64,000 bases of DNA from the NCBI RefSeq assembly GCF_988243305.1, contig NZ_OZ547136.1. One strand, written 5' to 3'. The notes below the pieces were generated by a model. It was not told where the DNA came from and ran no database searches. It worked only from the letters and a program-made list of their open reading frames with translations. Within the stretch, counting starts at the first letter, position 1. Every line of letters begins with the position of its first letter. The translations under genes and the position numbers were made by a program. Shown here piece after piece: positions 2,832 to 54,438 of this stretch.

Positions 2832-4643
2832 TTAAAAAGTGATACAGGTTGCGCCCTGTTCGGCACCGGACAGTTTTTCACGCAAGGCGCTGAATAATTC
2901 ACGTCCTGTTCCCACGCGTGACGCGCTCAGGTCAGGAATGTGCGGTTCGCGAGCAGCCAGTTCCGCTTCGTCTACCAGCAGCGTCAGTTCGCCTGTCTGT
3001 CCATTCACACGAATGATGTCCCCGTCGCGCACTTTTGCCAGCAGCCCGCCATCGTAGGCTTCTGGTGTTACGTGGATAGCTGACGGCACTTTACCTGAAG
3101 CGCCGGAGAGTCGTCCATCGGTAACTAACGCAATTTTGAAACACCGGTCCAATAATACACCAAGTGGCGGCATGAGTTTATGTAATTCTGGCATTCCGTT
3201 CGCTTTTGGCCCCTGATGACGGACAACAATGACACAATCGCGGTCCAGCAAACCCGCTTCAAAGGCCGGCATAACGTCATGCTGGCTTTCAAAAACAACC
3301 GCAGGCGCTTCAATCACCTGGTTCTCTACCGGCACGGCAGAGGTTTTCATCACCGCTCGGCCCAGGTTACCGCTTAACACTTTTGTCCCACCATGATGAG
3401 AGAAAGGTTGTTCGAAGGAAGCGATCACATTGTTGTCGAGTGATTTTTCTGCCCCTTCCCGCCAGTCCAGTTCACCATTATTCAGCCATGGTTCAAGGGT
3501 ATAACGAGACAGACCAAAGCCTGCCACCGTATTGACATCTTCATGCAGCAGGCCTGCTTTGAGCAGTTCACGCACCAGAACCGGTACGCCACCTGCCGCC
3601 TGGAAGTGGTTAATATCGGCCGGACCGTTCGGGTAGAGACGTGCCATCAGCGGTACAACATCAGAAAGGTCAGAAAAGTCATCCCAGTTAATCTGAATAC
3701 CGGCCGCGCGTGCCATCGCCACCAGGTGCATGGTGTGGTTAGTGGAACCACCGGTCGCCAGCAGTGCAACGATACCGTTCACCACCACTTTCTCATCGAT
3801 CATCTTACCGATCGGCATCCATTCATTACCATTACCGGTCATGCGTGTAACCTGGCGCGCAGCGGCTGCGGTCAAAGCATCGCGCAGCGGAGAATCCGGA
3901 TGAACAAAAGAAGAGCCTGGCAACTGCATCCCCATAAACTCCACCACCATCTGGTTGGTGTTGGCAGTACCGTAGAAAGTACATGTTCCCGGCGCATGAT
4001 AAGACGCGGCTTCTGACTCCAGTAATGCCATGCGGTCCACTTTACCTTCGGCATAAAGCTGGCGAATACGCACTTTTTCTTTATTTGGCAAACCGCTTGC
4101 CATCGGTCCAGACGGCACAAACACCGCAGGCAAATGCCCAAACGACAGGGCTGCCATCGTCAGACCCGGGACAATCTTGTCGCACACACCGAGGAACAGA
4201 GCACCATCAAACATGTTATGGGACAGCCCCACCGCCGCAGACATCGCAATCACTTCGCGGCTTAACAGCGACAATTCCATTCCATCCTGCCCCTGGGTGA
4301 CACCATCACACATCGCCGGAACACCGCCTGCAACCTGACCAACCGCATTTGCTTCATGCAGGGCTTTACGAATGATTTCTGGATAGTGTTCATAAGGCTG
4401 GTGAGCGGAGAGCATGTCGTTATAGGAGGTGATGATGGCGATATTGTTACGCAACATGCTTTTCAATGAGGCTTTGTCTTCTGGCTGGCAGGCAGCGAAA
4501 CCGTGTGCCAGGTTACCGCATGCCAACTGCGAACGATGAACGGTCGAAGTTTTCGCTTGTTCTATCCGGGCGAGATAAGCAGAGCGAGTCTCGCGCGAAC
4601 GTTCAATGATTCGATTTGTTACGCGTAACAATTGTGGGTTCAT
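2832..4643 (-). CDS. edd: Phosphogluconate dehydratase
   Basis: 603-aa ILVD/EDD-family ORF upstream of eda. Confidence 0.95.
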
Positions 4644-23822: not shown

Positions 23823-24491
23823 ATGGTGAAATCAATGAAAAAAAACACAGATGATGGGGCTAAAATTTACACACCACTTACCCTAAAGCTTTATGACTGG
23901 TGGGTTTTGGGAGTATCAAATCGGCTTGCATGGGGATGTCCTACAAAGGAACACCTTCTTCCACACTTTCTGGAACATTTAGGTAACAACCATCTGGATA
24001 TTGGTGTTGGAACTGGGTTTTATCTTACTCACGTACCTGAGAGTAGTCTGATATCTTTAATGGATTTGAACGAAGCTAGCCTGAACGCGGCATCTACAAG
24101 GGCTGGGGAATCAAAAATTAAACATAAAATTAGCCATGATGTTTTTGAACCTTATCCCGCGGCGTTACATGGTCAATTTGATTCCATTTCCATGTTTTAC
24201 CTTCTTCACTGCCTGCCTGGAAATATATCTACAAAAAGCTGTGTAATACGCAATGCGGCGCAGGCCTTAACTGACGATGGAACTCTATACGGAGCCACAA
24301 TTCTTGGCGATGGAGTTGTGCACAATAGCTTCGGTCAAAAACTGATGCGCATTTACAATCAGAAAGGCATCTTTTCAAACACAAAAGATTCCGAAGAAGG
24401 CTTAACACATATACTCTCAGAGCATTTCGAGAATGTTAAAACCAAGGTTCAAGGTACTGTAGTAATGTTTTCCGCTTCAGGGAAAAAATAG
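23823..24491 (+). CDS. Class I SAM-dependent methyltransferase-like protein (cargo gene)
   Basis: 222-aa ORF with Rossmann motif-I-like LDIGVGTGFY; opposite strand to the tail genes; substrate unknown. Confidence 0.55.
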   Translation: MVKSMKKNTDDGAKIYTPLTLKLYDWWVLGVSNRLAWGCPTKEHLLPHFLEHLGNNHLDIGVGTGFYLTHVPESSLISLMDLNEASLNAASTRAGESKIKHKISHDVFEPYPAALHGQFDSISMFYLLHCLPGNISTKSCVIRNAAQALTDDGTLYGATILGDGVVHNSFGQKLMRIYNQKGIFSNTKDSEEGLTHILSEHFENVKTKVQGTVVMFSASGKK

Positions 24492-24545: not shown

Positions 24546-25130
24546 TTACTCACTGACAGGGTTCGTAGGCCACTCAATATCAGGTGCAGTTGATGTATCA
24601 ACACGGTTCAGCAACACCCGATACTTCTTCCAGGCTTCCAGCAACGAGTTTTCTTCCTCCGTTGCGATTTCCAGATCTGCAGCATCCTGAAGCGGCGCAA
24701 TATGCTCACTGGCTACCTGCATCAGGTTGTTTTTTGTTTCTTCCGCCTCCCGGATCCGGAACAGTTTTTCTGCTTCCGTATCCTTCACCCAGGCTGTGCC
24801 GTTCCACTTCTGAAACTCCCCTTCCGGCGATAACCAGGTAACATTTTCCGGTAACGGACCGAGTTCAGAAATAAATAACGCGTCGCCGGAAGCCACGTCA
24901 TAAACCGTTTTACCCCGATGGTCTTCAAAGAGATGCCACGATGACTCATCACTGTTGAAAACAGCCACGAAGCCAGCAGGAATATCTGGTGGTGCAATAT
25001 CGGTACTGTTTGCTGGCAGACCTGTATGAGGCGGAATATATGCGTCACCTTCACCAATAAATTCATTAGTTCCGGCCAGCAGATTATAAATTTTTATGGT
25101 CCGTGGTTGTTCACTCATTCTGAATGCCAT
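24546..25130 (-). CDS. tfa: Tail fibre assembly protein
   Basis: 194-aa ORF matching remembered lambda Tfa ([34 protein letters not shown]). Confidence 0.9.
24568..24718. repeat. Direct repeat of the tfa 3' end, copy 2
   Basis: See copy 1. Confidence 0.7.
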
Positions 25131-27826
25131 TATGCAAGCCTCACAATGTAGTTAAATGCGATGTTTTTGACGGTGTTTTCCGCGTTACCCGCAGCGTTAA
25201 CGGTGATGGTATGTCCATGTGAACCAATCGCAACGGAGTGCGTATGAGCACCAATACCGACAGTATGCGCGTGTGCACCTGCAGATGCTGCTGTGCCGGA
25301 CAGTGAGTGGCTATGATTACCATCTGTACTGGTATTCGCTAACCACCCCGTAGACATACCTACTGAGCCTTGTACACCCCAGGTATTTTGACCTGAGCTT
25401 GTATAACCATATTGATAAGTATCTTTAAAAACACTGGGGTTAAATCGACGGCCATCTCTATGGCTGTGATTACCAGCTGCATTCGTGCTGCCACTTAAAC
25501 TATGGGTATGCGCACCAGTGTTATTCGTGGATTTAGTGCCGTAATCAAACGACGATGTGGTTTTCGTCCCCAAATCCGTACTGGATGCGCTGGCGCTGTG
25601 GGTGTGCGATTTAATGCCGTCCCGTTCCTGAGACAATACGGCACGACCACTGGCAGGTTTGCCCTTAATCGTCCAGCCACGCATATCAGGGATCACGCCT
25701 GACGGATAAGCGGCTGCAAGTTCCGGGTAGGCAGATTTGTCAAAAGTCTGCCCCTGCATCAGGGCATAACCAGACGGAACGGTATCCGATGGCCACGGGA
25801 TTGGTGCGCCAGGCGGATAAAACTGCTCTGATGGCGTATAGAGTGAATAAACTGTACCGTCCGTTAACCCTTCCGGCTTATTAGCAGAATATGCTGGTGA
25901 CGTATGAATCGTCACGCTGGCATTACTGGTATAATCCCATTGAATATTTACACCAGTCGCATAATTTCCGATTGCAACGTAAATATCGTAAGTATCACCA
26001 GATGTATTGACCCAGGCAAAATTTGTAAACCCTGTCGATGTGCGCTGCCATAAAGCACCAGTAATCCCCTTCGGATTACCATTACCTGCACGCAAAACAA
26101 GTTCAGATATACCTGCCTGTTGAGGTGAACCGACGTTAAATCCAGCGCCACCAATCAACGTAATTGAAACAACAGAACTCGCCTGTGGCATGGTTACCGT
26201 TGCTAATTTGAACCAACCAGCACCACCGCTGAATGACATTGTTGTTGAGTTAAGCGTACCAATATCTTTCGGCGTCAGTGTTATATCCTCCGAAAGCGCC
26301 TTACCATTCACCTTACGGTCAGAAGGTACCCGATCATTCGCATTGTCATTCGCTGCTTTAACTGCCTTCGGTGTCGCGGCAAGCGTTTCAGACGTACTGT
26401 TTGTCGCACTGCTGAGCTGTACTATCCCCTTTTTCGTCGTGCTCGCATCCTCAAGCGCCACGGCGGATGCAATATCCTCTGCCCGTTTTGCCGCTGTCTC
26501 AGCGCGCGTTGCTGCGGATTCTGCCGTACTTTTGCTCTGTGCTGCCGCTGTCGCACTGCCAGCAGCCTCTGTCGCCTTTGTGGATGCCGTCGTGGCGCTG
26601 CTCTTCGCTGCTGACGCCTGTCTGGTCGCCTCATCTTTTGAAGCAGACGCCGATGATGCCGATGACGCCGCCGAACTGGCGGACGATGCCGCTGCCGTTT
26701 TTGAGGATTCTGCGCTGGTTTCCGACGCTTTCGCGTTCGTTTCGGATGTCTTCGCTGAGGAAGCAGACCTCGCTGCTGCGCTGGCCTGTTCAGTGGCTTC
26801 GCCAGTCTTCGTTGTGGCTGTTGAAGCGGATGATGCGGCGCTTTCTGCCGATTTTCCGGCGGCGGTGGCACTGACTGAGGCCTGCCCGGCACTTGTTGAT
26901 GCGGCACTGGCGGACGACGCAGCCGCTGTTTTTGAATCTGCCGCAGCTGAGGCACTCTGTCCCGCTGCCGTTTCAGAAGACCTGGCGTTCGTCTCGGACG
27001 TTTTGGCCGCCTTCGCAGAATTTGCTGTCGCCGTTGCCGAGGAAGCTGCGCTGCTGGCGCTCGAGGCTGCGCTCGTTTCTGATGATTTTGCCGCCTCTTT
27101 TGAAGCCGACGCATCCCGGGCTGAGGTGGCAGCTTCTGACGCTTTCGTGGTCGCGGTGGATGCAGAAGTGGCTGCTGATTGTTGTGACGCTGCGGCATTC
27201 GTTTCTGACGTTTTCGCCGCAGCGGCACTGGTGGCCGCCGCGCTTTTTGAGGACTCTGCAGCGGCAGCACTTTTTTCCGCTTCAGTGGCCTTTGTTGATG
27301 CCGTTTCTGCGCTGGAAGACGCTGACTGAGCCGACGACGCGGCCTGTCCGGCTGACATGCTGGCTGCGCGTGCTGAGCCTGCAGCATCAGTCGCATGGGT
27401 TGCCGCCTCACGGGCTGATGTGCTGGCATCGCCGGCTGACTTCTTCGCGGCTGCCGTGTTCTGTGCCACTGCGGACGCGTTACGCTCCACCTCTTCCACC
27501 ATCACTTCAAAACGGCGCAGTGCCTCCGGTCGGACATCATCCTCCGTCATGGCACCGAGAAAATCATTCAGCGTACCTGGTCTGGAACCTTCATAGACGG
27601 TAATGGTCCCGGCATGTGAAGGCGGAAAACCTTCAACCAGCAGGGTGACGCTGTACTGACCATGCTCAACATCCATGCTGTAACGTCCGGCTTCATCCGG
27701 ATTTTCAGAGGCCACCGTGTTCACCACCACCGTGCTGCTGGTTCGTCTGGCCTTCAGCACAATGGTGCAGTTCTGTACTGGTTTTCCTGTGCCATCTTTA
27801 AGCACGCCAGAAATTTTTACTGTCAT
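25130..27826 (-). CDS. stf: Side tail fibre protein with expanded Ala/Ser/Thr-rich repeats
   Basis: 898-aa ORF; N-terminus ([22 protein letters not shown]) and C-terminus (...[24 protein letters not shown]) match remembered lambda Stf. Confidence 0.9.
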
Positions 27827-27977: not shown

Positions 27978-28577
27978 TCAGAAACGGTATCCGATACCAA
28001 CAATAAATGCATCCGTTCGCCAGTCGCCACTACCGGAACCTTCATAAGCAAGGTCAATGGTCACGGATTCGGTCGGGTTAAACTGCACGCCAGCCCCCCA
28101 CGCCAGAGACGTGTTGCTGTGGCGACCGTCATCACTTCCGGTCAGCACATCGTGCGTTTTCCCCTTGTTGTCAGTTACGCGGAGATAATCCCCGGAGAAA
28201 GTCGACACACGGCTGTAAGACACACCCGCCATCGCATACGCGCTGAACCATTCATTCACGCGCACAGACGGCCCCGCCATTACGCTGAACCAGCGGTTAC
28301 GAACGGAATCTTCATGCCAGCGGGTATCGCTGTAACGGGTCAGCTGGCGATTCTTGTCTCCTGCATAGCTGAATGACGTCACCAGCCCCAGTGTGTCCGT
28401 AAACTCATAACGGTATTTCACGTTAATCCCGTTCAGATCATCACTGCCGGGGACGTTCGTCGAGGCATGAAGATACCCCGCGCTCAGCGTGGACTGATGT
28501 TCAGACGCCCATGCAGGCGCACCGGATACGGCCAGACAAATGGCTGCGGACAAAATTGCTGCACAAACTTTACGCAT
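27978..28577 (-). CDS. lom: Lom/Ail-family outer membrane protein
   Basis: 199-aa ORF with signal peptide and beta-barrel character, ending in the aromatic residue typical of the family; lambda-like position between J and stf. Confidence 0.85.
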   Translation of the reverse strand: MRKVCAAILSAAICLAVSGAPAWASEHQSTLSAGYLHASTNVPGSDDLNGINVKYRYEFTDTLGLVTSFSYAGDKNRQLTRYSDTRWHEDSVRNRWFSVMAGPSVRVNEWFSAYAMAGVSYSRVSTFSGDYLRVTDNKGKTHDVLTGSDDGRHSNTSLAWGAGVQFNPTESVTIDLAYEGSGSGDWRTDAFIVGIGYRF

Positions 28578-28647: not shown

Positions 28648-31600
28648 TCAACGAATACTGATGCCGGAAGCGGCTTTTTTGGTCACAATCACCGTACAGT
28701 CGGTGATATTGCCTGCCCCCTGATTGCCTTTCTGGAAAATCTTAAACTCCAGAGTGACGCTACCACCACCACTAGGCATATCAATAACTGCACTGTAACT
28801 ACCGGGAATGGCCCCTTTAGTTTCTCTGGATGCGATTAATACGCCGTTTTTGCGAACTTCAAAACCATAACCCGTGTATCGCGTGCCTCCTGGGTTATTT
28901 CCGCTCCCCGGATCGTCATACGCTATACCGTTAAAAATAATGGGCGGAATAATAATCTGGCGGTCAAAGTTATGATCATCGCTGATGGTGACTGTAACCG
29001 TACCGTTTGGTGTTTCCGTGTTACCCCACGTACCGACTTTTTTCGGGAAGGCTTTTGATACAGCTTTAACGAAATCCCCTCTGACCTGGGTCGCCTCCAG
29101 CATGCCCTTAATCGTACAGTTCTGGTTAATCTTGACATTGTTGAGCGTTCCTGAGTTCGCATTCACACTGCCACTGATATCCGCATTTTTAGCGGTCAGC
29201 TTTCCGTCTGATGTCAGGGAAAATACCGGAGGACTGCCACCGCTGGTAATGGTGGGGGCCGTCAGGCGCTTCAGGAACACGTCGTTCATGAATATCTGGT
29301 TGCCCTGCGCCACAAACATCGGCGTTTCATTCCCGTTTGCCGGGTCAATAAACGCGATACGGTTAGCGGCAACCAGAAACTGGCTCAGCTTGCCTTCCTC
29401 CGTGTCCTCCATGCTGAGGCCAATACCCGCGACATAATGTTTGCCGTCTTTGGTCTGCTCAATTTTGACGCCCCACATGGCATTCCATTTATCGTTAGCG
29501 TCCTTCCACTCTTTCGAAAACTCCTCCAGTCTGCTGGCGTTATCTTCCGTCAGCTCAAAGTTTTCCAGCAGTTCCTTGCCGAGATGCGTTTTATTGATCA
29601 ACCCTTTATAAAAATTCAGATAACCTTCCGCATCATCGCTCGCCCGACCGACGGCCTCCACAAATGCCGATTTACCAACGGTGTTCACGCTGCGGATATA
29701 AAAGTAATAATCATAACCTGGCTTAATATTGCTACTGGCGGCTATCCAGTACAGCGCCGTACCAAGATAACGCGCGCTGGTTTCAACCTGCCTGATATCG
29801 ATAATCCGCTTTTCCGAGAACCAGAACTCAAACTGCACCGTCGGGTCATATACAGCCAGTTTCGGGACCGCTGTTATCTGAAAATACCCTGGTATCAGTT
29901 CAATAGTGACAGGCGCTGCCGGTGCCGCAATCCGGAACGATACCGATGCCGGATCGCCCTGCTGCCCCCACGCATTTACCGCCCGGACCGTCAGCGTGTA
30001 ACGCCCCAGCGCCAGTTGCCTGAAGCGGTATGTGGTTTCCGCCGTCCGGGCCGTGCTGACCAGCCGCTCACTGCCGTCATCCGCTGTTACGGTCAGACGG
30101 AGCAGGAAGCTCACGCCCTTCACCACCTTCGGCGTGTCCCAGCGCGCCAGCACCTGGTATTCCCCGCTGTCTGCGGTGACTTCTGCGGTCAGGTGCTGCA
30201 CCGCTGGCGGCGTGACACCATTTACCGTGCCGCTCTGGTCGCCGTCAAAGTGCGCCCCGTTATCCACGATGGCCTCTTTTTCCGGTACATGCTGCACGGC
30301 GGTGATGGCATACGTGCCGTCGTCGTTCTCACGGATACTCACGCAGCGGAACAGGCGCTGGCGCAGCGTCGGCAGCTTCAGCCCCCATACGCTGTATTCA
30401 GCAACGCCGTCAGGAACACGGCTCACTTTCACCTTCACGCCGTCGGTGACGGACTGAACCTCCACGCTGACCGGACTCCCCTGCCCGTCAACCAGGCTTA
30501 TCAGCGTGGTGCCGGAAGATGGCAGCGTGATTTCACGGTCGAGCGTCAGCGTCCGGGTCTGGCTGTTTACCGCCAGCACGCGCCCGCCGGTGCGGATACC
30601 GGCATAGTCATCATCGCAGATTTCAATGACATCGCCCGGTACATGGCGAAGCCCTTCGGCACCCACGCTGAAGTCCACGGTCTGCGTTTCCAGCAGTTCT
30701 GTTTTAATCAGCCACAGCCCGGCGCGGTGTGCCTGCCCCCGGCTGGTACAGCCAAAAGCATCCATCTTCGTGACGTTACGACCGTAACGGGCAATGGCCT
30801 GCGTGTCCTCCACAAGCTCTGTCGCCGTCTCCCAGCCGTTATTCGGGTCAATCCAGTTCACCTCAACGGCATTATGGCGGTCCTTCAGGGCGCTGAAGCT
30901 GTAGCGGAACGGCGCGCCATCATCCGGCATCACCACATTACTGCGGTTATAGGTCCACACCTTATCCGACGGTCGGTCCTGCACGAACGTCAGCGTCTGC
31001 CCGTTCCATACCGGCATACAGCGCATCGCCGAGCAGAAATCACTGAGCACATCCCACGCCTTACGCTGTGTGGTCAGCCAGGCATTACAGGTGATGCGCG
31101 GCTCCGTGCCGCCAAAACCATTCGGTACCAACTGGTCGCAGTACTGGCCGATAACGTACAGCGCCCATTTGTCCACATCTGCCGCACCAAGACGTTTCCC
31201 CATGCCGTAGCGCGGGTGGGTCAGCATATCCCACAGACACCAGGCCATGTTGTTGCTGTATGCTGGCTTTAACGTTCCGTCCCAGATACCGCTGTATTGC
31301 CGCGTCTGCGGGTTATAGTTCGACGGCACCTGCAGAATACGCCCGCGAAGATGATAATTACGGCTCACCTGCTGGCTGCCGAACTGCTCCGAGTCCACCT
31401 GCACGCCGACCAGTGCCGTGTTCGGGTAGCACTGTTTCACATCGATGATTTCGGTGTATGACGACCAGAGCGTTTTGTTCTGCAGCTGGTCTGTGGTGCT
31501 GTCCGGCGTCATCCTGCGCATCCGGATATTAAACGGGCGCGGCGGCAGGCTACCCACCACCACCGAGGCCAGATACTGCGAGGTGGTTTTGCCCTTAATG

Positions 31601-32061
31601 GTGATGTCTTTTTCCGTCACCCAGCCACCGTTACGTTGTATCTGAACCAGCAGACGGACTTCCGACGGATTCCTGTCACCCTTTGAGGTGTTTTCCACCA
31701 GTGCCTGTACACCGAAGGTAAAGCGCAGACGGTCGATGTTTGCAGACGTAATGGTGCGGGTGATCGGCGTGTCATATTTCACTTCCGTACCCAGCACCGT
31801 CTCGGAGCCGGAGGATTCAAACCCCTCCGGCGGTGTCTGCTCCTGCTCACCGGCACGGAACACCACCGTGACACCGGAGATGTTGGTATTCCCCTCAGTG
31901 TCCAGCACCGGCGTACTGTTCAGCAGCACGCTTTTTAATCCATCCACCGGACCTTCAACCGGCCCTTCGCTGATGGCATCGATCACACTCAGCAACTGCG
32001 TGGACTTCAGGTTGTCCTTCGCTTCGCGCGGGGTATGCCCCTTACTGCTTCCTTTACCCAT
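28648..32061 (-). CDS. J: Tail tip / host specificity protein J
   Basis: 1137-aa ORF beginning [34 protein letters not shown]. Confidence 0.95.
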
Positions 32062-34137: not shown

Positions 34138-34466
34138 CAGTTCACCACCTGTTCAAACTCTGCGCTGAACTCAACACGCAGCATACTGACCCGCGACGAC
34201 CATTTTGCGCAGGTCACCTTTATCTGCCGCCACTCATAAGGCGGCGTCCACAGAAAGGATTTCCAGCCCCCGTGCTCTTCCAGAAACGACTCCAGTACCG
34301 TGGCCTCCTCACGGGGGACAGAAAGCGTCACGCTGTACGTTTTCAGGTTGGCATTCAGCCCGGCAGGCGCTCGCTGGGAATAGCCATCACCAAAGCGCAC
34401 CTTTCTTACAGAAGGGGCCGAAGCCACATCCATACCGGGTTTCACTTTCCAGCGGAAGGTTTTCAT
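34137..34466 (-). CDS. M: Minor tail protein M
   Basis: 109-aa ORF between H and L. Confidence 0.9.
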   Translation of the reverse strand: MKTFRWKVKPGMDVASAPSVRKVRFGDGYSQRAPAGLNANLKTYSVTLSVPREEATVLESFLEEHGGWKSFLWTPPYEWRQIKVTCAKWSSRVSMLRVEFSAEFEQVVN

Positions 34467-37024
34467 CGTCCACCTCCGGAGAACAGGCCACCATCACGCA
34501 TCTGTGTCTGAATTTCATCACGGGCACCCTTGCGGGCCATGTCATACACCGCCTTCAGAGCAGCCGGACCTATCTGCCCGTTCGTGCCGTCGTTGTTAAT
34601 CACCACATGGTTATTCTGCTCAAACGTCCCGGACGCCTGCGACCGGCTGTCAGCCAGACTGCCCGGTGTACCGACATAACCACCGGTGGCATAGCCGCGC
34701 ATCAGCCGGTAGAGATTCCCCACGCCAATCCGGCTGGTTGCCTCCTTCGTGAAGACAAATTCACCACGGTGAACAATCCCCGCTGGCTCATATTTGCCGC
34801 CGGTTCCTGTGAATCCTCCGGTTGCAAAATGGAATTTCGCCGCAGCGGCCTGAATGGCTGTACCGCCTGACGCGGATGCGCCGCCACCAACAGCCCCGCC
34901 AATGGCGCTGCCGATACTCCCGACAATCCCCACCATTGCCTGCTTAAGCAGAATTTCTGTCATCATGGACAGCACGGAACGGGTGAAGCTGCGCCAGTTC
35001 TGCTCACTGCCGGTCAGCATCGCTGCCATATTCTGTGCAATACCATCAAAGGTCTGCGTGGCTGCACTTTTTACCTGCGACATACTGTCCGTGGCGCTCT
35101 CTTCCCACTCACTCCAGCCGGACTTCAGGCCTGCCATCCAGCTCCCGCGAAGCTGGTCTTCAGCCGCCCTGGTCTTTTTCTGCTCTGACATGACGTTATT
35201 CAGCGCCAGCGGATTATCGCCATACTGTTCCTTCAGGCGCTGTTCCGTGGCTTCCCGTTCTGCCTGCCGGTCAGTCAGCCCCCGGCTTTTCGCATCAATG
35301 GCGGCCCGTTTTGCCCGTTGCTGCTGTGCGAATTTATCCGCCTGCTGCGCCAGCGCGTTCAGGCGCTCCTGATACGTAACCTTGTCGCCAAGTGCAGCCA
35401 GCTGGCGTTTGTACTCCAGCGTCTCATCTTTATGCGCCAGCAGGGATTTCTCCTGTGCGGACAGCTGGCGACGTTGTGCCGCCTCCTCCAGTACCGCGAA
35501 CTGACTTTCTGCCTTCCACAAATCCCGGCGCTGCTGGCTGATTTTCTCATTCGCTCCGGCATGCTTCTCCAGCGTCCGGAGTTCTGCCTGAAGCGTCAGC
35601 AGGGCAGCATGAGCACTGTCTTCCTGACGATCGCCCGCAGACACCTTCACGCCGGACTGTTTCGGCTTTTTCAGCGTCGCTTCATAATCCTTTTTCGCCG
35701 CCGCCATCAGCGTGTTGTAATCTGCCTGCAGGATTTTCCCGTCTTTCAGGGCCTTGTTCAGTTCTTCCTGACGGGCGGTATATTTCTCCAGTGGCGTCCG
35801 CAGGCGTTCGTAAGCCTTCTGCGCCTCTTCGGTATATTTCAGCCGTGACGCTTCGGTATCGCTCTGCTGCTGCGCATTTTTGTCCTGTTGAGTCTGCTGC
35901 TCAGCCTTCTTTCGGGCGGCTTCAAGCGCAAGACGGGCCTTTTCACGATCATCCCAGTAACGCGCCCGCGCTTCATCGTTAACAAAATAATCATCCTTGC
36001 GCAGACTCCAGATGTCGTCCGCTTTCTTAAACGCAGCCTCTGCCTTAATCAGCATCTCCTGAGCGGTATCAGGACGACCAGTATCCAGCACCGCATCCCA
36101 CATGGATTTGAATGCTCGTGCTGTCCTGTCTGCCCAGGTCTCCAGCGTGCCCATGTTCTCTTTCAGGCGACGGGTCTGGTCATCAAACCCTTTCGTTGCT
36201 GCCTCGTTCGCCGCCTGCAATGCCCCGGCACCATCGCCGGAACGCTGCAACTGAGCAACATACGCAATCTGCTCCGCCGTCACGTTATGGAACTGGCGCG
36301 CCATCGCTGTCAGCCCCGACGTCGGGTCTGTGGTCAGCTTCCCGAAGGCTTCAGCGACCTTGTCCACCTCCACGCCGGATGCAGAGGAGAAACGCGCCAC
36401 ACTCTGGCTGATGGATGCAATCTGAGCCTCACCGCTTACTCCCGCCTTAACCAGTGCGCTGAGTGACTCGCTGGTCTGGTTAAACGTCAGCCCTGCCGCC
36501 TGCCCGGCTCTGGACAGGACCAGCATACGATCTGCCGTCAGACCCGACTGATTGCCGGAAAGGACCAGCGTTTTGTTGAAATCGGACAGGGTTGAGTTGC
36601 CCTGATACCAGGCATACGCCAGCGCACTGGTCGCCACCGCCAGCGAGGTGGCCCCGACCATCGGCAGGGTGATCGCACCGGCAAGCCCCCTGAACATGGG
36701 GATCATCCCGCCGAAGGAGTCCTTCACCTGACCACCCTGTTGCAGCAGGATCAGCCACGGACTTTGCCCGCCTGCAAGCTGCGTGGCCACGTCGGTGAAC
36801 TGCGCAGGCAGCATACGCATGGCGGCTTTATACTGCCCGACGGAAATCCCCGCTTTCTGTGCAGCCAGTGCCTGTCGGCTCAGCGACTGTTCAACGACTG
36901 CCGCTGTTTTTTTCGCATCACTTTCCGTACCGGAAAAATGACGCCTGACTCTGGCCATCTGCTCGTCAAATCTGGCCGCATCCAGACTTAAATCAACGAC
37001 CAGATCGCCTACCGGTTCAGCCAT
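34463..37024 (-). CDS. H: Tail tape measure protein H
   Basis: 853-aa ORF, same length as lambda H; coiled-coil-rich centre. Confidence 0.95.
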   Translation of the reverse strand: MAEPVGDLVVDLSLDAARFDEQMARVRRHFSGTESDAKKTAAVVEQSLSRQALAAQKAGISVGQYKAAMRMLPAQFTDVATQLAGGQSPWLILLQQGGQVKDSFGGMIPMFRGLAGAITLPMVGATSLAVATSALAYAWYQGNSTLSDFNKTLVLSGNQSGLTADRMLVLSRAGQAAGLTFNQTSESLSALVKAGVSGEAQIASISQSVARFSSASGVEVDKVAEAFGKLTTDPTSGLTAMARQFHNVTAEQIAYVAQLQRSGDGAGALQAANEAATKGFDDQTRRLKENMGTLETWADRTARAFKSMWDAVLDTGRPDTAQEMLIKAEAAFKKADDIWSLRKDDYFVNDEARARYWDDREKARLALEAARKKAEQQTQQDKNAQQQSDTEASRLKYTEEAQKAYERLRTPLEKYTARQEELNKALKDGKILQADYNTLMAAAKKDYEATLKKPKQSGVKVSAGDRQEDSAHAALLTLQAELRTLEKHAGANEKISQQRRDLWKAESQFAVLEEAAQRRQLSAQEKSLLAHKDETLEYKRQLAALGDKVTYQERLNALAQQADKFAQQQRAKRAAIDAKSRGLTDRQAEREATEQRLKEQYGDNPLALNNVMSEQKKTRAAEDQLRGSWMAGLKSGWSEWEESATDSMSQVKSAATQTFDGIAQNMAAMLTGSEQNWRSFTRSVLSMMTEILLKQAMVGIVGSIGSAIGGAVGGGASASGGTAIQAAAAKFHFATGGFTGTGGKYEPAGIVHRGEFVFTKEATSRIGVGNLYRLMRGYATGGYVGTPGSLADSRSQASGTFEQNNHVVINNDGTNGQIGPAALKAVYDMARKGARDEIQTQMRDGGLFSGGGR

Positions 37025-54192: not shown

Positions 54193-54269
54193 TGGCGCGT
54201 TGTACTGGATTCGAACCAGTGACCGATTGCTTAGAAGGCAATTGCTCTGTCCGGCTGAGCTAACAACGC
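54193..54269 (-). tRNA. argO: tRNA-Arg (anticodon UCU), argO-like
   Basis: Hand-folded cloverleaf; anticodon loop CTTCTAA; T-arm GGTTCGAATCC; 3' CCA encoded. Confidence 0.8.
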
Positions 54270-54282
54270 AGGGTACAGATAA

Positions 54283-54359
54283 TGGACCGCCATCGAGGAC
54301 TCGAACCCCGCGCAACCAGCTTCGAAGGCTGGCGCTCTATCCTGATGAGCTAATGGCGG
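54283..54359 (-). tRNA. argN: tRNA-Arg (anticodon UCG), argN-like
   Basis: Hand-folded; anticodon loop CTTCGAA; T-arm GGTTCGAGTCC; 3' CCA encoded. Confidence 0.75.
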
Positions 54360-54366
54360 TATGTGA

Positions 54367-54438
54367 TGGTGGCCCTTGCTGGATTTGAACCAGCGACCTG
54401 GCGATTATGAGTCGCTCTCACCACTGAGCTAAAGGGCC
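54367..54438 (-). tRNA. ileZ: tRNA with CAU anticodon (Ile2/Met type), ileZ-like
   Basis: Hand-folded; anticodon loop CTCATAA; T-arm GGTTCAAATCC; short D-loop; 3' CCA encoded. Confidence 0.7.

Follow-up and report, generated by a model that had tools for sequence, protein, structure and literature searches.

The side tail fibre gene (stf) of a lambdoid prophage raises the question of what a long stretch of alanine, serine and threonine is doing in the middle of the fibre protein. A first-pass annotation of this DNA had read the stretch as an expanded low-complexity repeat, carried by repetitive, GC-rich DNA and open to length variation by slipped or unequal recombination. The answer proposed here is that the tract is very probably the α-helical coiled coil that forms the proximal shaft in side tail fibres of the lambda/StfR type, with 50 heptads setting the length of the arm. 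This reading is based on the periodicity of the tract, its unbroken register, position-specific conservation, the predicted helix, the invariance of its length and its homology to lambda Stf. That the chains form a trimer, and where the rod sits in the virion, is assigned by analogy, from the literature on the Ur-lambda homologue (PMC12617516).

Organization of the stf locus and of the Stf protein

The window, that is, the whole stretch of DNA analysed, comprises 64,000 nucleotides of contig NZ_OZ547136.1. Its bases 1-24500 correspond to the edd-zwf-pykA-aspS region of the E. coli chromosome (98.8% identity). The gene of interest lies in a lambdoid prophage tail module with the order J, lom, stf and tfa, all on the minus strand, an order that is also found in the related loci L001, L002 and L004-L008. 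The features are as follows:

28648-32061, minus strand: J (open reading frame list and Pfam)
27978-28577, minus strand: lom (PF06316, E = 4e-122)
25130-27826, minus strand: stf, side tail fibre gene, intact, 898 aa (open reading frame list, Pfam and PHROG 295)
27545-27826, minus strand: collar-forming N-terminal domain StfN, aa 1-94 (PDB 9e7m, Ur-lambda tail fiber protein residues 1-94, E = 3e-47)
26429-27478, minus strand: Ala/Ser/Thr tract, aa 117-466, 50 uninterrupted heptads, putative core of the proximal coiled-coil shaft (heptad layout, periodicity, register and AF2)
26591-26905, minus strand: block of 15 heptads (105 aa, 315 nt) without a counterpart in lambda Stf, aa 308-412 (gap in the pairwise alignment; edges uncertain by a few residues)
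26345-26443, minus strand: PF03406 "Phage_fiber_2" module, one copy, aa 462-494 (Pfam, E = 1.3e-19 on a fragment)
25133-25861, minus strand: receptor-binding tip with His-x-His repeats, aa 656-898 (PDB 2xgf, T4 gp37 tip, E = 1.3e-84)
24546-25130, minus strand: tfa, tail fibre assembly protein, whose start overlaps the stf stop (PF02413 Caudo_TAP, E = 3.7e-44)

Stf can be assigned to the lambda Stf/StfR type of side tail fibre by its N-terminal domain (PF08400, aa 1-134, E = 4e-70), and by a layout in which the shaft is followed by the PF03406 module and then by a C-terminal collar and tip. The protein also contains a PF07484 collar (aa 673-720) and PF03335 repeats, and it matches PHROG 295 (tail fiber) with an E value of 2e-217. 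The role of StfN is to attach the fibre to the tail (PMC12617516).

Two elements downstream of the tract are known from other phages. The PF03406 module, which has been described in P2 H, Mu S and lambda Stf, directly follows the tract and is an element distinct from the heptads; here, aa 440-505 of Stf match PDB entries 5yvq and 8ju3 (Tail fiber protein S). At the C-terminus, aa 656-898 align with the tip of T4 gp37, His-x-His repeats included. The likeness to gp37 is limited to this tip, as the gp37 regions matched contain no such Ala/Ser/Thr heptad shaft.

The tract as a probable coiled-coil shaft

The composition of the tract is as biased as the first-pass annotation had said. Alanine, serine and threonine account for 73.7% of aa 117-466 against 31.8% of the remainder of Stf, and the GC content of the DNA is 61% against 52% for the window. 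The repeat unit is a different matter, as it had been given as SAA/TSA and is in fact seven residues long (21 nt), with the consensus A-[ST]-x-A-x-[ST]-S. Autocorrelation has maxima at every multiple of seven residues in the protein and of 21 nt in the DNA, and each of the 25 best lags is divisible by seven. The self-identity of the tract is 0.41 at lag 7 and 0.24 at lag 3, against 0.22 +/- 0.02 (maximum 0.28) in shuffled sequences.

These heptads follow one another in a single register. When the register was tracked with a Viterbi procedure, the tract came out as one segment with zero jumps, as is the case for a coiled coil. Ala fills position 0 in 34 of the 50 heptads and position 3 in 46, and Ser fills position 6 in 37. 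In an alignment of 14 alleles that share this length and are 90-99% identical, the number of variable columns at positions 0 to 6 is 3, 14, 10, 2, 16, 17 and 1 of 50, respectively. The conservation of positions 0, 3 and 6, together with the variability of positions 1, 2, 4 and 5, is the pattern expected if the core is buried and the other faces are exposed. Coiled coils seldom have a core of Ala, Ala and Ser, and the a, d, e and g positions of these heptads are not readily assignable.

The predicted structure is helical. The AF2 model, obtained for a monomer from a single sequence, places helix at aa 95-253 and 260-498 with pLDDT mostly between 75 and 88, and Pro, Cys, Phe, Trp and Tyr are all missing from the 350-aa tract (aa 117-466), so that no helix-breaking proline occurs in it. 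The model is interrupted once, at residues 164-169 of the modelled fragment. This break is probably a fold-back artefact of the prediction, and such an artefact was reported by Wang et al. for the full-length AF3 model of the Ur-lambda side fibre (PMC12617516). A collagen-like or β-structured fibre was also considered and was rejected on the absence of a G-X-Y pattern, the periodicity of seven and the predicted helix.

The proposed assembly would be as follows. The N-terminal collar domains (aa 1-94) of three Stf chains would fix these to the tail. Past a short linker, the chains would wind into one slim, parallel helical rod, with Ala, Ala and Ser at positions 0, 3 and 6 forming the core. The rod would hold the hinge, the PF03406 module and the gp37-like receptor-binding tip off the tail and towards the cell surface, and the number of heptads would determine the length of the arm. 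The rise of a coiled coil is 0.148 nm per residue; the rod would then be about 52 nm long for 50 heptads, compared to about 36 nm for the 35 heptads of lambda. Arm length may in turn be linked to the thickness of the host surface or to host range.

Comparison with Ur-lambda, lambda and Rac

The closest structural precedent is gpStf of Ur-lambda (Wang et al. 2025, Sci Adv, PMC12617516). There, StfN (residues 1-91) and a linker (92-101) are followed by a proximal coiled coil (102-393), the start of which was resolved as a trimeric bundle, and then by a hinge (394-422) and the distal domain. The side fibres of Ur-lambda are trimers, present at four per virion, and they require Tfa (PMC12617516). 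Stf of the window resembles Ur-lambda and lambda Stf in the position of its gene (J-lom-stf-tfa), in the N-terminal collar domain, and in both the motif and the register of the heptads.

Lambda Stf is collinear with Stf of the window across the tract and the PF03406 module, and both have a gp37-like C-terminal end. In the stretch that separates the PF03406 module from the collar domain the two proteins are unrelated, and their tips differ in detail. Within the tract, lambda has 35 heptads where the window has 50, and the pairwise alignment accounts for this with one gap of 105 aa, which is exactly 15 heptads. This block explains 105 of the 124 residues by which Stf of the window exceeds lambda Stf; the first-pass annotation was therefore correct in attributing the greater length of the protein mainly to the tract.

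A different result is obtained with StfR of the K-12 Rac prophage (1120 aa). Here, the tract is of identical length, the distance between flanking anchors (defined below) is 363 aa, and there is one copy of PF03406. At the nucleotide level, stfR is 94.4% identical to the window across the 1158-nt tract region, with no indel. Beyond the tract it matches again only at nt 2017-2328 and 2512-2697 of the window gene; the C-terminal, receptor-binding part of StfR is unlike that of the window, and StfR is 222 aa longer.

Length of the tract in close relatives

The length of the tract was examined in 5,426 complete E. coli genomes, using a 1158-nt query that covers the whole tract and counting a match when at least 80% of the query was covered. 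Such a match was present in 3,576 of the genomes. Among 60 rows taken from along the ranking of these matches, all 48 that were near full length consisted of single pieces whose span equalled that of the query, with zero net indel. The distance between flanking anchors is likewise 363 aa in 13 further alleles (90-99% identical), which come from phages, from E. coli genomes and from the database representatives. Similarly, a 50-heptad tract is carried by all but one of the nine further stf genes that were retrieved first, those of phages and E. coli genomes, and also by K-12 Rac StfR and the E. coli BEC1 allele. The 50-heptad form is the prevalent allele rather than an expansion in this genome, and lambda has the short form. 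The tract can be called expanded relative to lambda only, as its length in K-12 Rac StfR, and in the majority of complete E. coli genomes, is the same. An invariant count, equal to that of other stf genes, was what the first-pass annotation had itself named as evidence against its proposal; this is what is seen among relatives, and the wider family varies in whole heptads.

Length does vary in close relatives, and the variable element is the PF03406 module. The best full-length E. coli matches to Stf are 95% identical to it and are 942 and 986 aa long, with the tract aligned free of gaps. They differ in length by one or two additional copies of a 44-aa unit that stands straight after the tract, and relative to them stf of the window is shorter, not longer. 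The module is present in one copy in the window, two in E. coli WAT and three in strain 01_3327. In the latter it forms a true tandem repeat (TRF: period 132, 2.3 copies, 91% matches). At 91% identity, this 132-nt repeat is the sole element here that short-read assembly could collapse.

Length classes in the wider family

A search of a large protein database with the N-terminal domain returned nearly exclusively partial proteins of 130-230 aa from fragmented assemblies, which are useless for counting lengths. The survey rested instead on representatives clustered at 50% identity and on direct fetches. In the representatives, shaft length was measured between two anchors, R[RK][FL]E at the N-terminal end (aa 104) and the first GIVQLS motif. 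The distances were 363 aa (n=4), 258 aa (n=8), 251 aa (n=4), and 160, 146, 139 and 110 aa (n=1 each). Five of the six alternatives differ from 363 aa by whole heptads, namely 15, 16, 29, 31 and 32, and the chance that five of five differences would be multiples of seven is about 6e-5. The sixth (P0140, 110 aa) is 253 aa shorter than 363 and is one residue off register; its sequence suggests a deletion that joined two TAAA motifs one residue out of register. Fibres with another N-terminus, which is phage P1 S-like (so annotated in phage Cyrano), have 43 to 56 heptads of the same motif.

Over evolutionary time, therefore, the tract does change in length, almost always by whole heptads. The whole-heptad steps may reflect either selection for register or the greater nucleotide similarity that exists at in-register offsets. 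A more speculative proposal, which is possible although doubtful, is that shaft length is discretely tunable: selection would keep the register while the reach changes in steps of ~1 nm, perhaps to match the thickness of the host O-antigen or capsule. In practical terms, the natural classes (about 18 to 50 heptads where the N-terminal domain is of this kind, and 56 in a fibre that has another) could guide the engineering of side-fibre length with the register intact.

An explicit account of the heptad pattern or of its quantised length was not found in the searchable literature, and the whole-heptad classes across the family are a modest new detail. The tract itself is the known, ordinary shaft of a very common prophage tail fibre and matters little for discovery.

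Nucleotide repetition in the tract

The reading of the first-pass annotation, taken further, would be a disordered, low-complexity linker, encoded by repetitive GC-rich DNA, which has expanded and which changes length by slippage or unequal crossing-over in the manner of a contingency locus. The biased composition of the tract (74% A+S+T) and its 15 heptads in excess of lambda fit such a linker, as do the several anchor distances among the 50%-identity representatives; K-12 StfR, with 23 low-complexity regions, has also been reported as an outlier (PMC12695832). The nucleotide sequence does not bear this out. TRF detected no tandem repeat in the tract DNA except for a 25-nt run of a 9-mer, and comparison of the tract DNA with itself, which might have revealed a repeat array, returned one match only, of 30 bp at 87% and at an offset of 231, which is 11 x 21. 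The families of direct repeats in the tract are 60-87% identical over at most 46 nt, and even the junction of the lambda deletion has only about 9 nt of imperfect similarity.

Head-to-tail, near-identical nucleotide units are thus absent from the tract, and copy number varies among close relatives in the adjacent PF03406 module and not in the heptads. Slippage or assembly collapse inside the tract is, as far as the sequence indicates, unlikely because the TRF, direct-repeat, self-match and junction results show little nucleotide repetition. Length variation by slipped or unequal recombination, as had been suggested, finds repeats that are too diverged and, in the 48 sampled E. coli matches, a tract with zero net indel. 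The invariance of length largely refutes the idea of an expanded repeat, and the strict register and position-specific conservation point to a folded rod, so that a disordered, slippage-prone linker is now improbable. Low-complexity filters and labels misdescribe what would be a strictly phased structural rod.

Alternative-frame and antisense ORFs

Several long ORFs lie across the tract in other frames (all from the open reading frame list):

26190-27329, plus strand: spurious antisense ORF, 379 aa
26422-27429, minus strand: spurious ORF in the +1 frame of stf, 335 aa
26893-27603, plus strand: spurious antisense ORF, 236 aa
26467-26874, plus strand: spurious antisense ORF, 135 aa, in the same frame as 26893-27603

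The start of the first and the end of the second are the coordinates, 26190-27430, at which the first-pass annotation had placed the tract; the tract is at 26429-27478. That annotation had also called these ORFs spurious products of GC-rich DNA repeats. They are present on both strands and do appear spurious, but the DNA is not tandemly repetitive and composition is the more fitting source. The codon set of the tract (GCN, TCN/AGY, ACN, GAR and AAR) seldom gives stops out of frame, and the long ORFs are side effects of it.

A real overlapping gene, in one of these frames, is the alternative. The sizes of the ORFs invite it, and comparable ones have been annotated: the reference annotation of lambda has had orf206b antisense to this part of stf, and Orf45 of phi458 is similar. 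Two null models were used, in which either the order of the codons was shuffled or the codons were shuffled within heptad columns. In the +1 frame, the longest open run is 349 codons with a shuffle mean of 279, and 34% of within-column shuffles are equally open. In the -1 frame, the figures are 299 codons with a shuffle mean of 247, and 313 codons with a shuffle mean of 257, and about a third of the shuffles reach the observed value. Neither frame, then, is more open than shuffled sequences commonly are.

The -2 frame is the exception, as it has one stop where 9.7 are expected and 0 of 1000 within-column shuffles are as low. Its openness has a simple origin. In the tract, NCT codons precede a codon that begins with A in 0 of 28 cases, compared to 8.2 expected. 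This avoidance removes CTA, which is TAG on the antisense strand; it accounts for all of the stop deficit and keeps open the frame of 26893-27603 and 26467-26874. NCT before A is likewise avoided in the tape-measure gene, at 0 of 25 with 6.3 expected, and in the C-terminal part of stf, at 3 of 32 with 10.4 expected; the latter is free of any such antisense ORF. Since the bias is shared with other genes, the openness of the -2 frame is no sign of an antisense gene. In homologues this frame is mostly open, yet the positions of its stops and the longest open runs vary. The translations of the alternative frames are rich in Arg, Pro and Leu, and no Pfam family scored above threshold for any of the ORF products. 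An antisense gene, which had been considered for the low number of -2 stops, was rejected in view of the general avoidance of NCT before A and the absent family match; for the frames together, an overlapping coding gene that is open beyond composition, conserved and recognisable in its product was not found, and its existence is very improbable. Long ORFs that cross the tract in other frames should be left out of gene annotations; orf206b and Orf45 are examples already in public records.

Possible exchange of the receptor-binding ends

The DNA of the tract is 88-99.7% identical over thousands of genomes, while the C-terminal ends of the fibres differ. Some E. coli matches end within the tract, at query nt 560, 1031 or 1046; in one of these, from strain 13P484A, the tract is joined to a fibre with an S74-peptidase knob. 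Hybrids between lambda and Rac across stf/tfa have been obtained experimentally (De Paepe et al. 2014, PMC3945230). The conserved shaft DNA plausibly serves as homology for the swapping of receptor-binding ends.

A stronger version, in which such swaps are the main reason for keeping the tract, as a homology cassette at the level of DNA, and the structure of the protein is secondary, can draw on the same conservation, on the matches that terminate in the tract and on the lambda-Rac hybrids, but it is scarcely credible, as the concentration of amino-acid variation at non-core heptad positions and the whole-heptad differences in five of six length classes point to selection on the protein, and as a role in exchange adds to the structural reading and does not substitute for it.

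Stf of the window is itself encoded by a mosaic allele. The exact 898-aa protein is absent from a collection of 15 billion sequences (exact look-up). The closest allele is that of E. coli BEC1-S17-ESBL-09, which matches nt 1-2324 at 98.3% and free of gaps; the window allele differs from it in the tip segment (nt 2325-2571) and in the first 150 nt.

Codon-pair bias and antisense reading frames

One of the frames antisense to the stf shaft is kept open by the way codons are paired in the gene. In the shaft tract (window 26429-27478), the codons GCT, TCT and ACT, collectively NCT, are never followed by an A-initial codon (0 of 28, against 8.2 expected). The same holds for the tape-measure gene at 34463-37024 (0/25; expected, 6.3), and in the C-terminal part of stf (25130-26428) only 3 of 32 such pairs are present where 10.4 are expected. 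In gene J, the avoidance is absent, with 6 of 18 observed versus 5.5 expected. As NCT codons rarely precede A-initial codons, the trinucleotide CTA is avoided across the codon boundary, and this bias leaves one antisense frame almost without stops. Two ORFs on the strand opposite the stf shaft are annotated as genes in public records:

J02459 20147-20767 (lambda locus L014, 648-1268), complement: lambda orf206b
phi458 locus (L010), 2998-3735: Orf45

Both appear to be artefacts of composition, just as the spurious reading frames of the window are.

Copy number and assembly

Immediately 3' of the tract there is one copy of a 44-residue module:

26345-26443: PF03406 "Phage_fiber_2" module, aa 462-494 of Stf

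In relatives, this module is a true tandem repeat of 132 nt with 91% matches (strain 01_3327, L001 4394-4697). There is one copy in the window and in K-12 StfR, two in E. coli WAT and three in strain 01_3327. The module is the sole element of stf that could collapse in short-read assembly.

Short-read assemblies evidently break inside stf. Among the matches listed from a large protein database (P0001-P0120), all 120 homologues of the Stf N-terminal domain are short, at 111-235 aa, and most carry the label "partial". The breakage is probably due to the presence of several stf-like copies in E. coli genomes, where they occupy a median of 2 places per genome and a maximum of 16.

Receptor-binding tip and closest allele

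The receptor-binding tip (window 25133-25861) is a strong match to T4 gp37 (PDB 2xgf, E 1e-84). Differences between stf and its closest relative, from E. coli BEC1-S17-ESBL-09, are confined to the first 150 nt and a segment of approximately 250 nt in the tip:

25255-25502: divergent tip segment, stf nt 2325-2572

The exact 898-aa Stf is absent from a collection of 15 billion sequences.

Shaft motif and gene neighbourhood in relatives

The heptad motif also occurs in giant proteins. In P0217 (3903 aa), P0224 (2820 aa) and P0226 (4436 aa), the Ala/Ser/Thr heptads fall into 9 to 14 separate segments per protein. Most segments are 10 to 17 heptads long, and they are spaced approximately 150 to 370 residues apart, which suggests very long, multiply jointed fibres made from the Stf shaft motif. 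In strain 13P484A (L012 2719-6495), the shaft is fused to a "pyocin knob domain-containing S74 family peptidase" fibre, in a pseudogene. In BEC1-S17-ESBL-09, a macro-domain protein gene separates stf from tfa (L011 6385-7275).

Two further features were noted in the window:

23823-24491, plus strand: SAM-dependent methyltransferase-like ORF, 222 aa (PF08242 and related families)
54193-54438, minus strand: three-tRNA cluster, anticodons Arg-tct, Arg-tcg and Met-cat

The methyltransferase-like ORF directly adjoins tfa, close to where the tail genes end with stf and tfa; it could be cargo of the prophage or belong to the flanking chromosome. The tRNA cluster lies past the tail genes, on the side of the window that holds the prophage.
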